Positions 1,231 to 5,241 of a stretch of DNA of 24,000 bases are shown here, in pieces (position 1 is the stretch's first letter; the number at the start of each line of letters is the position of its first letter). This stretch comes from Candidatus Borrarchaeum weybense (GTDB lineage Archaea; Asgardarchaeota; Sifarchaeia; Borrarchaeales; Borrarchaeaceae), in contig JAHQJS010000004.1 in assembly GCA_019057385.1 (NCBI GenBank), positions 340,535-364,534 on the forward strand, written 5' to 3'. The notes beneath the pieces were generated by a model. The model did not search any database. It was given only the letters and a program-made list of their open reading frames with translations, and had not been told where the DNA came from. The translations under genes were made by a program, and so were the position numbers.

Positions 1231-4200
1231 TTAGGGCAAAAGATCCTTAACTATAACTGGAGGACCTTTTTTCTGTGGTGTATAAATTCCCTCCATGTGT
1301 TGAAACCTTTCAAACATTAGAAGAAGAGCTTCTTTATCTGGAGCATAAATAAAGGGGACGAATCGCTTCTTTTCTAGCAAAAAATCCTTGAGTTGTAGTG
1401 CGCACTGCCTTATAGCATCCTTTACTGTCATATATTCATCCAGATAGTATATCTCTTGATTAAGTATATCACCAACCAGTCTCTCAACTTTGTAGTGCCC
1501 GTTCCACGTTAAATGATAGAATCGTTCACGCTCTAATGTTTTACGTATCTTAAAATCGGCTTTTGTAAATTTACCATATATACATGCTAAGATGAAGGTG
1601 AACCTGAATAGGGGAAGAAACATCTCTCGGAAGTCAACGACGGTGCCAAGAAAGGATCGCCGTGTTTTCTTAAAATGCAATATCAGTTCATCGGGCACCC
1701 ATGAGAACCCTACTTCAGCGAGTGCTTTTCGACAGTAAAAATTAAGATGGCGATAGACGGCATTGAGTGCCGCACTAAAGGGAGTTCGCGCCTTTGCTTC
1801 ACCCAGAAGCACCACTGTGGCAATATAGCGATCGAGGGTACGACTAATGATCTCAAAGTAACTGCCTTGCAGCAAATGCTTGGGAACCTCCCAGGCAACG
1901 CTTTCCACTACCCCTTCAAGACCGCGAAGGTTGTCAATATTGCCCCGCCAATAGAGAAAAGTGTACGCCACGCGATCCAGCAGTTGGGATAAGAATTCCT
2001 GTGCCTCCGCAGAAGATAATATCCCCTCTTTTTCAAACCAGAGAATTGCATTGGCGAGCCCCATATTTTTACCCATCACCAGCAGCCTCGCTAATAACGT
2101 GCCTCGTTCCGTCCCTCTGAGTTGCTGGGCGGTGTGTTTCAGTTCATCAGCTAATTGTTGTTTCTCTGGTGTCAGTGTATGCTGTGCAAAGAATCTGCCT
2201 TCGGGCGAATTAATATCAATGAGTTTCTTGCCATAGTTCTTACGAACTAGTTGCGAAACTTCTCCACCCTCGATGATGATGTGACAGATAGCACCGATTA
2301 AATATCGATGTGTTGTTTTCCCGTCCTTTAGTGCATGAGCAAATCGTTTTTTCTTAATATCAAGCCGTTCACCGCACTTGACACGAATGGTTCGTTTTGG
2401 TCGTCGAATGTAAACCTTTGTTTTTTTAACCCGCGGGACATAATTTCCGGGCTTGCCTAAAAGCAAATCCAATCCTTTTAGCATCAAACCTCGGTTGCCT
2501 GGTTTCACCACCAAGTCACCTTTCATGGTCAAATAATAGCGGGAATTGCATTCGGGACAGACTGTGTATTCATTATAGCAGGATGGCAATTCCACCGTAC
2601 CGCCGGAGTAGCAGAAGTAGCACGGAGTATCATCGAGTGTTTCTTGTATGGCACTAATTGTGCGCTTTTTTAACTCCCGCGCTTTCTGATGGTATTCGCA
2701 GGCACCCATCTTTGGTGCGGCATAGGATTTCCTTTCTTGCCTTCCAATTTTTGTGTTATACTTTTGATTCAACACACAGATATGTGCACGTTTCGATCTG
2801 CGACGATCCTTCATAGAATTTATCCGAAAGAAGCCACATGAACCACAGGTGAGCCGCAGATGTTCAGGAATACTCATATTCGCGTCTGCCACATAGATTT
2901 TAGGGCGACCTCGTAACTGCCCTCGAGAGATAAATTGGATTTTTCCTTGGATTCCTAACTTCTTTGCATGTTTCACTACCGTAGTATGGTGAACTGGTCG
3001 ATTATACTGTTTACGAACCTCTGACGTAATTTGTGCGTAAGAGATGACCTTATATTGATTAATAATGTTATAAATTGCTTCTTGAAGTCCCGGATATGGT
3101 ATCGGTCTGTACTTTGGATACCTGCGTCTCCTTCTGCCTTTGTTCCCTCTTTCAACTTCAGGCTCTTTGTATTCAGGATTTAGTTTTGTGGTAAGTTTTT
3201 TGGCAACCCTTGCCGCCCTCGGGTCACTGCGCCCCAGATAGTCATAACTTGCTTCTGCGATCCACGACGCCGTCTTTCTATGTGCTTCTGCATCACCCGG
3301 TCGTATGTTTACCCGAGTTGCAGCTTTTGTGACCGAAGAACCCTGACTGAGTAACCATACGAAAGAGGCATATTGCTGGGCGGTATATCGTGTGGTGTTG
3401 CTCACTTCATGTATGCTTCGACCGATTAGTGTAATTACGTGCCGGGAGAATTCCCGTTCTGAGGAGCAATGATGTGTGGCAAAAAACTTCTTGATCCTTA
3501 AGGCGGTTTTAATCGGCAGTAAAAATTGGCTGGCCCAGCGTCCTTTGGCTGTTGCACTAAACTTTCCACCATTTCTTTTGATAAAACCTTCCTTGATAAG
3601 TGTGTGAAGGATTCCCTCTCTTTTTTTCTTCGGTTCATCCTGCTTAGGTCGAGCTAACAGTTTCTCTCTTAGTTGTTGTGTAAAGTCTTTCAACTGGTCG
3701 TGGGTGAATGGTGTCAACAGTAAGCGAAGCTCTCCGTTTTTGACCCCGCGTGTAGTGGTGTTCTTCTTGACCCACATGAAGAATTTTCTCGTTACACGTT
3801 TCAAGTCGAATGGGAGAGAGCCTTCGTGCGTTTCGCGCAATAAGGACAGTAAATGAAGTTCGTTATTGAGCCGACAAAGCTCCTCTTCCTGGTTCATGAG
3901 TGCGTTATTCATTAGTTCGGACCAATTCTGTAGCAATGCTTTGTGTTGATGCCAGAAGTAATGTCTTTCAAGTTTGTGAAGTAATTGATTCGTGGATGCC
4001 GAGCCTCTAGCTATCAGGGTGAGTACAATATCTGCCAAAGAAGAACGTGCCTGGCTTGTTATACGATGTTCTTTGACTATCAATTGTCCCTCGACGATTT
4101 GTATCTCCTTTTGCTTCAAAATTTCTTGATCGTCCCCCACGAAGATCAGATCAGCATAGCCCACCCGATGATGGCGCGGTCGTGCCGCCCTGCCACTCAA

Positions 4201-5241
4201 TTGTATCAACAGGTGAGGGTTGAACATCCCGGCATCGGCAATTATCACCCGTTTGATCGGAAAGTCCACCCCCTCTCCGTATTGAATCGTTGACAGAAAA
4301 ACCTGAAATTCACCCTTCTTAAGCCGTCTCATAGCTTCTTGTTGTTCCTCTTTACTGAGCCCGGCGTGACTGTAGCCCACGGTGAGATCGAGTCCACAAC
4401 TCTTAAGAAAGGACTGCAACTCTATAGCTCGTTGTTCAACCTGATTTCGTGTGTAGCAAAAGATGTGCACGATTTTAGTCCCCTGATCATCACCATACGA
4501 GCGTTGTTCAAAGGTCTTTTTGATCAAGCGAGCGAACAGAAAGCGTTTTTTTCGTTCAATCTGCTCTATGGTGCTGCCTGAAACCCCACAAGATGACACA
4601 ATAAGCTTCGACTGCCGTTCGTTGGTATGGATAAGTTGAGCGTCAAGCCAACTTACCAGTTCCTCGGCATTCCCCAGAGTAGCCGAGAGATAGATGATAT
4701 GCGGGCGAGGGCGTAACCAAGATCTTGCATTGACGATTGCAGTTTCTAGGCGAGCACCCCGCCCTTTGTTGCCCAGATTGTGCAGTTCATCGACCACAAT
4801 CAATCCTATCTTGTCTAAAAACGGATACTCGAAATGCTTAACTAGCAGTCCATTGAAGGATTCGTAGGTGCTGATGAGGATATCCGCCGTTTCAAGCTCT
4901 TCAGGAGACGAACGGTCATCTCCGCTGACTTTGAGGATGGTACAGGCGTCGTGATACCACTCTTTGAACTTGTCATACATCTGATCGATCAGCCGTTTGG
5001 TCGGCTCAAGAATTACACAGCGCATCCCTTTTCCAAGCACGCGGGTAGACACTATTTGGGATATCAAGGTTTTTCCCGAAGCGGTAGGAGTGTACAACAC
5101 CTTGTCCTGCCTTTGTTTACCAGAAAAACATGCCTCCCATTGAAAGTCGTAGAGGGCGTTAATGTCAGCCTGTTCCAACCGTTGACGTATGAATTCGTAG
5201 TTTAACCCTCTTTTCGTCATTGTAATGAACTGGCCTCTCAA
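1231..5241 (-). CDS. Fusion protein, 1336 aa: Hel308/Ski2-like SF2 helicase, basic linker, wHTH, Cys/His Zn clusters, Cas1-like integrase domain
   Basis: Single uninterrupted ORF. Start is TTG at 5241, or ATG at 5220 ('MTKRGLNYEF'). A TTTATATA box lies 35 nt upstream. See the domain sub-features below for motifs. Confidence 0.8.
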   Translation of the reverse strand: MRGQFITMTKRGLNYEFIRQRLEQADINALYDFQWEACFSGKQRQDKVLYTPTASGKTLISQIVSTRVLGKGMRCVILEPTKRLIDQMYDKFKEWYHDACTILKVSGDDRSSPEELETADILISTYESFNGLLVKHFEYPFLDKIGLIVVDELHNLGNKGRGARLETAIVNARSWLRPRPHIIYLSATLGNAEELVSWLDAQLIHTNERQSKLIVSSCGVSGSTIEQIERKKRFLFARLIKKTFEQRSYGDDQGTKIVHIFCYTRNQVEQRAIELQSFLKSCGLDLTVGYSHAGLSKEEQQEAMRRLKKGEFQVFLSTIQYGEGVDFPIKRVIIADAGMFNPHLLIQLSGRAARPRHHRVGYADLIFVGDDQEILKQKEIQIVEGQLIVKEHRITSQARSSLADIVLTLIARGSASTNQLLHKLERHYFWHQHKALLQNWSELMNNALMNQEEELCRLNNELHLLSLLRETHEGSLPFDLKRVTRKFFMWVKKNTTTRGVKNGELRLLLTPFTHDQLKDFTQQLREKLLARPKQDEPKKKREGILHTLIKEGFIKRNGGKFSATAKGRWASQFLLPIKTALRIKKFFATHHCSSEREFSRHVITLIGRSIHEVSNTTRYTAQQYASFVWLLSQGSSVTKAATRVNIRPGDAEAHRKTASWIAEASYDYLGRSDPRAARVAKKLTTKLNPEYKEPEVERGNKGRRRRRYPKYRPIPYPGLQEAIYNIINQYKVISYAQITSEVRKQYNRPVHHTTVVKHAKKLGIQGKIQFISRGQLRGRPKIYVADANMSIPEHLRLTCGSCGFFRINSMKDRRRSKRAHICVLNQKYNTKIGRQERKSYAAPKMGACEYHQKARELKKRTISAIQETLDDTPCYFCYSGGTVELPSCYNEYTVCPECNSRYYLTMKGDLVVKPGNRGLMLKGLDLLLGKPGNYVPRVKKTKVYIRRPKRTIRVKCGERLDIKKKRFAHALKDGKTTHRYLIGAICHIIIEGGEVSQLVRKNYGKKLIDINSPEGRFFAQHTLTPEKQQLADELKHTAQQLRGTERGTLLARLLVMGKNMGLANAILWFEKEGILSSAEAQEFLSQLLDRVAYTFLYWRGNIDNLRGLEGVVESVAWEVPKHLLQGSYFEIISRTLDRYIATVVLLGEAKARTPFSAALNAVYRHLNFYCRKALAEVGFSWVPDELILHFKKTRRSFLGTVVDFREMFLPLFRFTFILACIYGKFTKADFKIRKTLERERFYHLTWNGHYKVERLVGDILNQEIYYLDEYMTVKDAIRQCALQLKDFLLEKKRFVPFIYAPDKEALLLMFERFQHMEGIYTPQKKGPPVIVKDLLP
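1234..2409 (-). other. cas1: Cas1-like integrase domain (aa ~945-1336) of the fusion ORF
   Basis: Colinear with the Cas1 pattern. The N-terminal beta region is 'TIRVKCGERLDIKKKRF...ICHIIIEGGEVSQLVRKNYGKKLIDINSPEGRF'. 'NLRGLEGVVESVAW' carries E1109 (nt 1915-1917; E. coli Cas1 has 'LRGIEG' at E141). 'SAALNAVYRHL...KALAEVGF...ILHF' carries H1189 (nt 1675-1677). 'VVDFREMFLP' carries D1203 (nt 1633-1635). H-to-D spacing is 14 residues, against 13 in E. coli Cas1 (H208/D221). Confidence 0.65.
2548..3090 (-). other. wHTH-like segment plus two Cys/His metal-binding clusters (aa ~718-898) of the fusion ORF
   Basis: An 'RRRRR' basic linker precedes it. wHTH-like segment: 'ISYAQITSEVRKQYNRPVHHTTVVKHAKKLGIQGKIQFI'. 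Cluster 1: C799xxC802...H820xC822. Cluster 2 is a classic ribbon, C874-Y-F-C877 ... C895-P-E-C898 (nt 2548-2622). Confidence 0.5.
3172..5241 (-). other. Hel308/Ski2-like helicase region (aa 1 to ~690) of the fusion ORF
   Basis: Motif I 'TPTASGKT' (nt 5068-5091), motif II 'DELH' (nt 4780-4791), motif III 'SAT', motif VI 'QLSGRAAR'. These are followed by Hel308-like winged-helix/ratchet-type segments ('LADIVLTLIARGSASTNQLLHKLERHYF', 'LIKEGFIKRNGGKFSATAKGRWASQFLLPIKTA'). Confidence 0.75.

Follow-up and report, generated by a model that had tools for sequence, protein, structure and literature searches.

Among the systems derived from CRISPR-Cas, ARAMP systems are the closest to the locus described here. 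The passages on them in two papers (PMC8730458, PMC12669027) present them as Asgard-specific, array-less derivatives of type III systems with 'a distinct form of Cas1' in most loci. In its passages on the subject, the supplement of the 2025 classification (PMC12669027) treats the use of CRISPR RNA (crRNA) by ARAMP and the similarly classed HRAMP as unclear, and sees possible new CRISPR types in them if crRNA is used. Some Cas1 homologues of Asgard archaea have in addition been expected to belong to new mobile elements (PMC8730458). We have analysed a stretch of 24,000 nucleotides (nt) of Candidatus Borrarchaeum weybense (the window; G000:C4:340535-364534) from a genome of 4.18 Mb in 8 contigs, whose close relatives include the metagenome-assembled genome (MAG) Candidatus Borrarchaeum yapensis Yap2000.bin9.141, an Asgard archaeon. 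On its reverse strand, at window 1231-5241, one open reading frame (ORF) of 1336 amino acids (aa), read from a TTG start, fuses a Hel308-like helicase to a Cas1 domain through a DNA-binding type of linker. The locus has an Asgard host, no array, a diverged, type III-like Cas7 and a distinct, highly diverged Cas1, all of which are features of ARAMP. We show here that the fusion gene belongs to a three-gene unit that is present in several copies, three of which, this one included, lie on insertions relative to sister genomes. Our preferred explanation, to which we give a probability of roughly one half, is that the fusion is a functional helicase-assisted integrase and the large enzyme of a Borrarchaeum-specific, mobile, array-less ARAMP module derived from type III systems.

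The helicase-Cas1 fusion protein

The Cas1 domain occupies about aa 950-1336 (window 1234-2394, reverse strand). An earlier sequence-only reading of this DNA had proposed a Cas1-like C-terminus with E1109, H1189 and D1203 as catalytic residues, and had asked for a significant Cas1 match and an alignment of these residues with the Cas1 active site; we obtained both. Pfam PF01867 matches aa 958-1234 over profile positions 8-264 of 283 with 31.9 bits, above its gathering cut-off of 22.3. The CRISPR-Cas1 equivalog TIGR00287 gives 25 bits, under its cut-off of 71.7. A search of the PDB with the single sequence of the Cas1 part returned no match, and a family profile was needed to reach known structures: with 26 members, it matches A. 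fulgidus Cas1 (4n06) over the full length at E 2.3e-21, the reverse transcriptase-Cas1 fusion 7kft, and the M. mazei casposase (6opm) at E 3.6e-18. The AlphaFold (AF2) model of the Cas1 part (pLDDT 84.8) has an N-terminal beta domain (strands 21-63) followed by a helical domain, and the top 50 Foldseek matches to it are without exception Cas1 or casposase, with target-normalised TM-scores of 0.48-0.64. Across the 26 family sequences E1109 and H1189 never vary and the conservation of D1203 is 90% or more, and in the profile alignment the three residues fall on the catalytic E, H and D of 4n06 and on the catalytic residues of 6opm. A further acidic residue, E1206, is invariant among the eight close homologues only. 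The corresponding codons lie on the reverse strand at window 1915-1917 (E1109), 1675-1677 (H1189), 1633-1635 (D1203) and 1624-1626 (E1206). The Cas1 domain is complete, and its active site is, to judge from these residues, catalytically intact.

At the other end of the protein, aa 32-355 (window 4177-5148, reverse strand) form a superfamily 2 (SF2) helicase core of two RecA domains with motifs I, II, III and VI. The motifs named in the sequence-only reading are all present in the translation, both those of the helicase (TPTASGKT at aa 51-58, DELH at 151-154, SAT, and QLSGRAAR at 347-354) and those further on (the RRRRR linker and the Cys/His motifs CGSC, HIC, CYFC and CPEC). Pfam recognises DEAD (E 3e-26), Helicase_C (1e-14) and ResIII, and the motif residues G56, K57, T58, D151, E152, H154, G350 and R351 are invariant in ten full-length relatives. 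The top NCBIfam models for the fusion are Hel308 equivalogs (NF040935 and related), with 112-156 bits against cut-offs of 887-1216; because these scores fall so far short, the helicase is to be regarded as a relative of Hel308 and not as an orthologue. A structure of aa 1-960 was predicted from the alignment of the ten full-length relatives (pLDDT 64.7, so that domain detail is provisional). Its best Foldseek matches are whole Hjm/Hel308 chains (2zj5, 2va8, 2p6r; about 750 aligned columns, E about 1e-23), with Brr2, Mtr4 and the PolQ helicase ranked behind them. Together with the invariant motifs, this whole-chain match bears out the earlier call of a Hel308/Ski2-type enzyme, including the domains that follow the RecA core: a winged helix, a ratchet and a helical domain at about aa 395-690 (window 3172-4059, reverse strand). 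Other helicase matches within the genome align to the helicase part of the fusion only.

The two enzymatic parts are joined by a linker that begins with the basic RRRRR stretch and a predicted winged helix-turn-helix (about aa 700-790; window 2872-3144, reverse strand; from sequence and model). The model places helices at 719-730, 735-746 and 752-764 and strands at 769-771 and 783-785, and these three helices and two strands at aa 719-785, after RRRRR, are predicted to adopt a winged-helix topology. Two cysteine clusters follow (window 2548-2847, reverse strand), for which zinc binding is predicted from their invariance. All eight cysteines are kept in the ten full-length relatives at identities down to 19-22%, which argues for two metal-binding modules. 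The two Cys/His clusters of the sequence-only reading were both real, with one correction: H820 of its HxC motif lies outside the invariant columns, and the first cluster appears better described as C799/C802/C822/C848, the second being C874/C877/C895/C898. The region of the first (aa 788-870) is modelled poorly, with pLDDT below 50, and that of the second reaches about 64-69.

The probable start of the protein is the ATG at residue 8 (window 5220), where two paralogues and the family consensus also begin. The GC content of the fusion ORF region is 44-48%, against 34-38% in the flanks. Three paralogues in the genome share 73-89% aa identity and give ratios of nonsynonymous to synonymous substitution (dN/dS) of 0.16-0.19 over the whole protein, with dS of 0.30-0.95. 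Since the ratio stays well below 1 for each region as well (0.14-0.24), helicase, linker and Cas1 parts are all under purifying selection.

Searched with the C-terminal 407 aa, 1.84 billion representative proteins yielded only 25 relatives at E < 1e-3. Most of these are long and match close to their C-terminus, and several are fusions to a DEAD helicase too (1346-2361 aa). Only about ten proteins with the helicase-Cas1 architecture turned up in the databases searched, and close homologues of the fusion exist in the public Ca. Borrarchaeum yapensis MAG. Two larger helicase-Cas1 fusions from metagenomes, of 2051 and 2361 aa (L047:853-7008 and L048:8001-15086), adjoin a serine recombinase or TnpB gene, and their loci are without RAMP genes. 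Literature searches, whose coverage did not extend to the primary ARAMP report (Makarova et al. 2020 CRISPR J), returned no description of an Asgard helicase-Cas1 fusion. The suggestion that the fusion is undescribed was overstated, because the type of system, ARAMP with a distinct Cas1, has been published; within that type the helicase fusion is rare. Because the layout fits that type, we regard the fusion as a rare helicase-fused variant and not as a new category.

A three-gene unit in several copies

The fusion gene heads a unit with the order promoter, helicase-Cas1, RAMP, repeat, 270-aa protein, repeat. The three close loci have about 6.5 kb in common; the shared stretch opens with a TATA-like box, some 70 nt before the start codon, and closes with the 3' end of the terminal repeat. 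The 5' edge is a conserved upstream region containing this box (window 5242-5314, reverse strand), delimited by blastn and alignment of the three close copies. Downstream of the fusion, an intergenic region (window 885-1230, reverse strand) leads to the RAMP gene; its part at window 920-972 recurs ahead of the 270-aa gene, so that the two genes share a promoter-like sequence. The RAMP gene (window 75-884, reverse strand) encodes a Csm3/Cas7-like protein of 269 aa (Pfam RAMPs 27.9 bits; PADLOC Csm3 E 3e-7), whose family profile matches type III RAMPs in the PDB and which has 11 paralogues in the genome. The internal repeat copy comes next on the reverse strand, with its 5' part at window 1-45 and its continuation to the left of the window at L001:19921-20000. 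Still further left lie the gene of the 270-aa protein (L001:19008-19820), the terminal repeat copy beyond it (L001:18815-18936, reverse strand) and, after that copy, ftsY.

No Pfam or PDB sequence relative was found for the 270-aa protein. Its family shows an invariant H-D..H..HH..D pattern, with weak Pfam HD matches in three of nine members (E 0.013), and as a candidate for the Cas5-like second RAMP of ARAMP systems it aligns with the RAMP profile only weakly, along a G-rich loop (hhalign probability 0.9%). Within the unit we found no HNH or PD-(D/E)xK nuclease, only the HD-like motif of this protein.

There are six helicase-Cas1 genes in the genome, including a split one, and each is followed by a RAMP gene and a 270-aa gene, the order being kept in six of six cases. 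Five further RAMP pairs occur without helicase-Cas1. The split paralogue consists of overlapping ORFs of 567 and 781 aa (L022:4430-8468; G000:C4:417430-421468) and is probably a frameshift or a pseudogene. None of the six helicase-Cas1 loci has an array or a conserved ORF of cas2 size. The sole CRISPR array of the genome, with at least 49 repeats of 37 nt, lies at C4:148433-152109 and is adjoined by a canonical cas1 (269.6 bits), then by cas2-sized and cas4-sized genes.

The RAMP pair also occurs elsewhere in Asgard archaea, where it keeps other company. The 270-aa family is present in MAGs labelled Heimdall-, Thor- and Prometheoarchaeota, and at three loci of these other lineages (L049:6241-10071, L050:5825-10053, L051:5882-10005) a 270-aa-like gene again follows the RAMP gene. 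The neighbours there, divergently oriented to the pair, are a MazE/AbrB-like gene of 54-58 aa and a gene for a faintly LAGLIDADG-like protein of 460-550 aa. No Cas1 is detectable at these three loci; the LAGLIDADG-like neighbours of about 500 aa, compared with Cas1, gave hhalign probabilities below 1% in a single-sequence test of low sensitivity.

Insertions relative to sister genomes

All three close helicase-Cas1 copies sit in insertions relative to the sister genomes. At the window locus, ftsY and eIF6 are 11.4 kb apart, as against about 1 kb in G004, G002 and G001. Homology to the sisters stops at window -1580 and restarts at 8760, which gives an insertion of about 10.3 kb. At its right edge (window 8760-8887) the original 5' end of ftsY survives as a remnant with about 92% identity to the sisters. 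This 5' end, some 115-128 bp, is present twice: the second copy, at the left edge (L001:18293-18420), is about 70% identical and as a replacement keeps ftsY open. The copy on contig C5 lies inside an insertion of 10.5 kb at a site that is empty in G004. The copy on contig C3 is an insertion of 6.9 kb that corresponds almost exactly to the unit and carries essentially just the three unit genes. It is flanked by TCGATGAT and TCAATGAT, and the duplicated 8-mer is present in a single copy in G004 and G002.

The module thus behaves as a discrete, multi-copy, horizontally moving unit. The sequence-only reading had offered three functions for the fusion, and that of a casposase-like mobile-element enzyme is the best supported of them, the gene being on insertions absent from the sister species. 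Because an array-less, ARAMP-like unit lies on DNA that the sister species lack, an enzyme of a mobile element is favoured over one of spacer acquisition; the larger helicase-Cas1 relatives lend further support, since they too sit in settings that resemble mobile elements (serine recombinase, TnpB). Two further points agree with this. The ORF region is richer in GC than its flanks, and the island ORFs scanned, namely that of a TPR-repeat protein and a small one weakly matching HhH-GPD, include no tyrosine or other recombinase, not every small ORF having been scanned. In the mechanism that we propose, the helicase part, a Hel308/Hjm-like SF2 enzyme of 3'-5' polarity on DNA that includes a winged helix and a ratchet, would open the substrate DNA or load it, and the linker, with its basic stretch, winged helix and two zinc-type clusters, would hold the DNA. 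The Cas1 domain would then do the DNA joining as the integrase of the island, inserting either the module itself or DNA handled by the module into the chromosome. The fusion could in this way stand in for the Cas2 bridge of CRISPR integrases and for the PolB partner of casposons. The RAMP protein or the repeat may have a part in the choice of target.

Several observations weigh against a Cas1-driven mobile unit. In the three resolved insertions, terminal inverted repeats do not rise above shuffled controls and no right end is conserved. A clean target duplication is seen at only one of the three junctions, and its length of 8 bp matches neither casposons (14-15 bp) nor CRISPR repeats. In two of the three islands, about 3.4 kb is unrelated cargo that differs between them, so that a larger unit, mobilised by another agent, may be what moves. 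With dS of 0.3-0.9 the copies are old, which leaves no sign of recent transposition within the genome. Finally, variable islands in multiple copies are also typical of defence systems. As to the left end, none is conserved above shuffled controls in the three insertions, save for the repeat's own 3' motif.

The structured repeat and its flanking sequence

The non-coding repeat measures about 125 nt and invariably has the orientation of the genes. In the loci of this genome it follows both the RAMP gene and the 270-aa gene; at least 23 copies are present. Copies remain 77-86% identical even where the helicase-Cas1 proteins of their loci share just 33-37%. In its first hairpin seven of nine pairs show compensatory changes, a covariation that none of 500 shuffles reaches and that is far lower in slid controls, and the structure is rich in G-U pairs on the gene-sense strand. 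The covarying hairpin and the many G-U pairs on that strand point to a repeat that acts as an RNA, or as a single strand, of gene-sense polarity. Rfam has no family for it, and its similarity to the genome's own 37-nt CRISPR repeat was not convincing, which speaks against a known CRISPR repeat.

Of 151 genomes sampled in the phylum, a covariance model detects the repeat in six: the five of the genus, with 3-23 copies each, and one with 23 copies that represents a second family of the same class. The remaining 145 lack it. The repeat is restricted to Borrarchaeia; neither the ARAMP-like loci of other Asgard lineages nor those of the larger helicase-Cas1 fusions contain it. G005, G001 and G003 hold 23, 8 and 4 copies, respectively, and in these genomes, which are 69-80% complete, RAMP and Cas1-domain profiles find nothing. 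Six of the G005 copies are in unrelated contexts. Such copies without a detectable RAMP weaken the idea of the repeat as an obligate RAMP partner, and because helicase-Cas1 is not detectable there either, the repeat is best seen as dispersed, with no strict tie to the module. At window ~8700-8740, some 20-60 nt in from the island's right edge, part of the repeat's 3' end (GACCTTTTTCGTC...) recurs in the orientation of the full copies; the covariance model does not pick it up.

Directly beyond four terminal repeat copies (the window locus, R7, R6 and G004-C46), 25-35 nt recur 200-660 nt further on. This guide-like recurrence score was reached by none of 200 shuffles. Weaker matches of 17 nt are present at R9 and R2; five other terminal copies have none, and no internal repeat copy has a guide-like match. 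For two loci the empty site is known, and at both the second copy is host DNA directly beside the point of insertion. At R7, 32 nt beside the repeat are identical at 31 of 32 positions to the empty site of G004 and end exactly at the 8-bp duplication, and at the window locus a 34-nt match lies inside ftsY at the breakpoint. Guide-like pairs located 3' of a terminal repeat are L001:18772-18805 with about L001:18260-18295, and L021:6875-6906 with L021:6549-6580.

A sequence of this kind, matching the attachment site, resembles a homing guide, and we treat it as a lead and not as a result; nested insertions or duplications of the att type may give the same pattern. A bolder version of our explanation, which we consider improbable for now, is that the unit is an RNA-guided Cas1 transposon. 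The 125-nt repeat and the following 25-35 nt would form an RNA that the RAMP and 270-aa proteins bind and use to find the site (here the 5' part of ftsY), and the helicase-Cas1 protein, delivered by this complex, would insert the element at the edge of the match. If true, this would be a functional analogue of Tn7-like CRISPR-associated transposons (CASTs), built on the ancestral CRISPR integrase, and would answer whether ARAMP systems use an RNA.

Other features of the window and the genome

The window island carries, outside the conserved unit, a cargo gene for a TPR-repeat protein (window 5695-7935, forward strand). Three genes at window 12288-16558 (reverse strand) encode a zinc-ribbon/SPFH (Band 7) protein, an EAP30/Vps36-like ESCRT-II protein and a double-zinc-ribbon protein; they are typical Asgard content, unrelated to the fusion. 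At L001:6376-10023 (forward strand) lies the gene of the termination factor FttA/aCPSF1 (1215 aa), with an intein inside that contains LAGLIDADG and HTH domains. One of the loci with a RAMP pair only has, directly upstream, an ORF of 508 aa with faint TnpB/Cas12f-like matches (L018:6984-8510, forward strand) and, downstream, a methyltransferase like those of types I and IIG. Two dispersed repeats of about 320 and 380 bp (L021:14118-14436 and L021:5932-6313), similar to miniature inverted-repeat transposable elements, occur in dozens of copies in the genus, and both are absent from the orthologous sites of G004 and G002.

Alternative explanations

The rival that survives best takes up another function named in the sequence-only reading, that of a defence system outside CRISPR. 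The unit would be an array-less, non-mobile defence module in which the RAMP pair acts as a sensor of invaders, perhaps together with an RNA, and the helicase-Cas1 protein unwinds the invader's DNA and cuts or scrambles it; presence and absence of the unit would then reflect turnover of defence islands. In reviews, ARAMP and HRAMP are placed among derived defence systems with associated nucleases. The 270-aa partner has an HD-like motif. The helicase also resembles the defence helicases SngC, BrxH and HamB of PADLOC. In addition, the change of partners of the RAMP pair across Asgard archaea, with MazE-like and LAGLIDADG-like proteins in place of the fusion, suggests interchangeable effectors. 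However, eleven copies of one system in a genome of 4.2 Mb would be unusual for defence, one insertion comprises almost exactly the unit and has an 8-bp duplication, the Cas1 chemistry that appears to be retained is of the integration type, and nothing in the loci resembles a sensor output. We therefore consider a non-mobile defence module possible but on balance doubtful.

Far less can be said for the third function, that of an unusual CRISPR adaptation enzyme. If such an enzyme acted in trans, the helicase would make prespacers and the Cas1 domain would insert them into the single array of the genome. The Cas1 fold and active site are intact by sequence, as this would demand, and coupling of a helicase or nuclease to adaptation has precedents in Cas3-Cas2 (type I-F) and RecBCD-derived prespacers. 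Nevertheless, there is neither cas2 nor an array near the six copies, the only array has its own cas1, cas2-sized and cas4-sized genes, and the fusion remains far under the threshold of the CRISPR-Cas1 equivalog (25 bits against 71.7). A role in adaptation is, in our view, very improbable.

Just as little weight falls on the idea of a Hel308-family repair helicase with an extra DNA-binding tail, in which the Cas1 domain would be a catalytically dead structural remnant: the strong divergence of the sequence, the lack of a single-sequence match to Cas1 in the PDB and the existence of Cas1-solo group 1 proteins without the full catalytic set (PMC4046053) would agree with it, but the invariant E and H and the at least 90% conserved D of 26 relatives, aligned to the Cas1 active site, the dN/dS of 0.14-0.19 in the Cas1 part and a score of 156 bits against the cut-off of 1216 for a Hel308 orthologue all speak against it.

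Significance and comparison with known systems

ARAMP and HRAMP are the least understood derivatives of CRISPR, and the locus described here offers a compact version with three genes. It combines a Cas1 that is apparently active, as far as its residues tell, and fused to a helicase, with insertions that are clearly polymorphic and a conserved, structured non-coding element next to the RAMP genes; neither the signs of mobility nor the repeat is covered by the descriptions that we could find. If Cas1 does move the module, this would be a second case, independent of casposons, of Cas1 in the service of a mobile element, with a bearing on the origin of CRISPR adaptation. A helicase and an integrase in a single polypeptide might also be of use as a DNA insertion enzyme.

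Compared with ARAMP, the locus shares the Asgard host, the lack of an array and of cas2, the type III-like Cas7 RAMP and a diverged Cas1 in the locus, and it has a second conserved partner protein that is found across Asgard lineages. Unlike in ARAMP, the Cas1 here is the C-terminal third of a 1336-aa fusion with a Hel308-like helicase, the unit has an HD-like motif in its 270-aa protein instead of an HNH or PD-(D/E)xK nuclease, and a structured repeat of about 125 nt stands after each gene of the RAMP pair. The three other Asgard lineages sampled differ from the Borrarchaeum unit in turn, in that they pair the RAMP with MazE-like and LAGLIDADG-like genes.

The helicase part has its counterpart in Hel308/Hjm (2p6r, 2va8, 2zj5), whose five-domain arrangement and SF2 motifs it shares and whose chains are its best structural match over their whole length. 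In contrast to those enzymes, the fusion is not orthologous, has 650 extra residues, occurs in multiple copies and is borne on islands. In joining Cas1 to an enzyme that could prepare its substrate, it is similar to RT-Cas1, Cas4-Cas1 and Cas2-Cas3, where Cas1 or a partner is fused in the same manner; those, however, work with Cas2 at arrays, and the fusion has neither.

With CASTs (Tn7-like I-F, I-B and V-K), the unit has in common a nuclease-poor effector module, derived from CRISPR, on a mobile element. The guide-like sequence of 25-35 nt next to a conserved RNA-like scaffold, matching DNA at the known or presumed insertion site in five loci (four of this genome and one of the sister genome G004), recalls their homing guides. 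Unlike in CASTs, none of the unit's three genes (fusion, RAMP and 270-aa protein) is TnsA, TnsB or TnsC, although no dedicated Tns search was made; Cas1 takes the place of candidate integrase, a CRISPR array is lacking, any guidance is putative, and the scaffold also occurs without RAMP genes.

The comparison with casposons brings out differences in the element and likeness in the enzyme. No PolB was found among the island ORFs examined (the three unit genes, the TPR protein and one of several small ORFs), terminal inverted repeats are lacking, and the duplication is 8 bp long instead of 14-15 bp; the helicase is fused N-terminally, and RAMP genes are carried as cargo. What the fusion shares with casposases is the Cas1 fold, an active site that appears intact, independence of Cas2, and insertion into the chromosome with target duplication, and with some casposase families it shares the attachment of extra DNA-binding modules (HTH or zinc) to Cas1.

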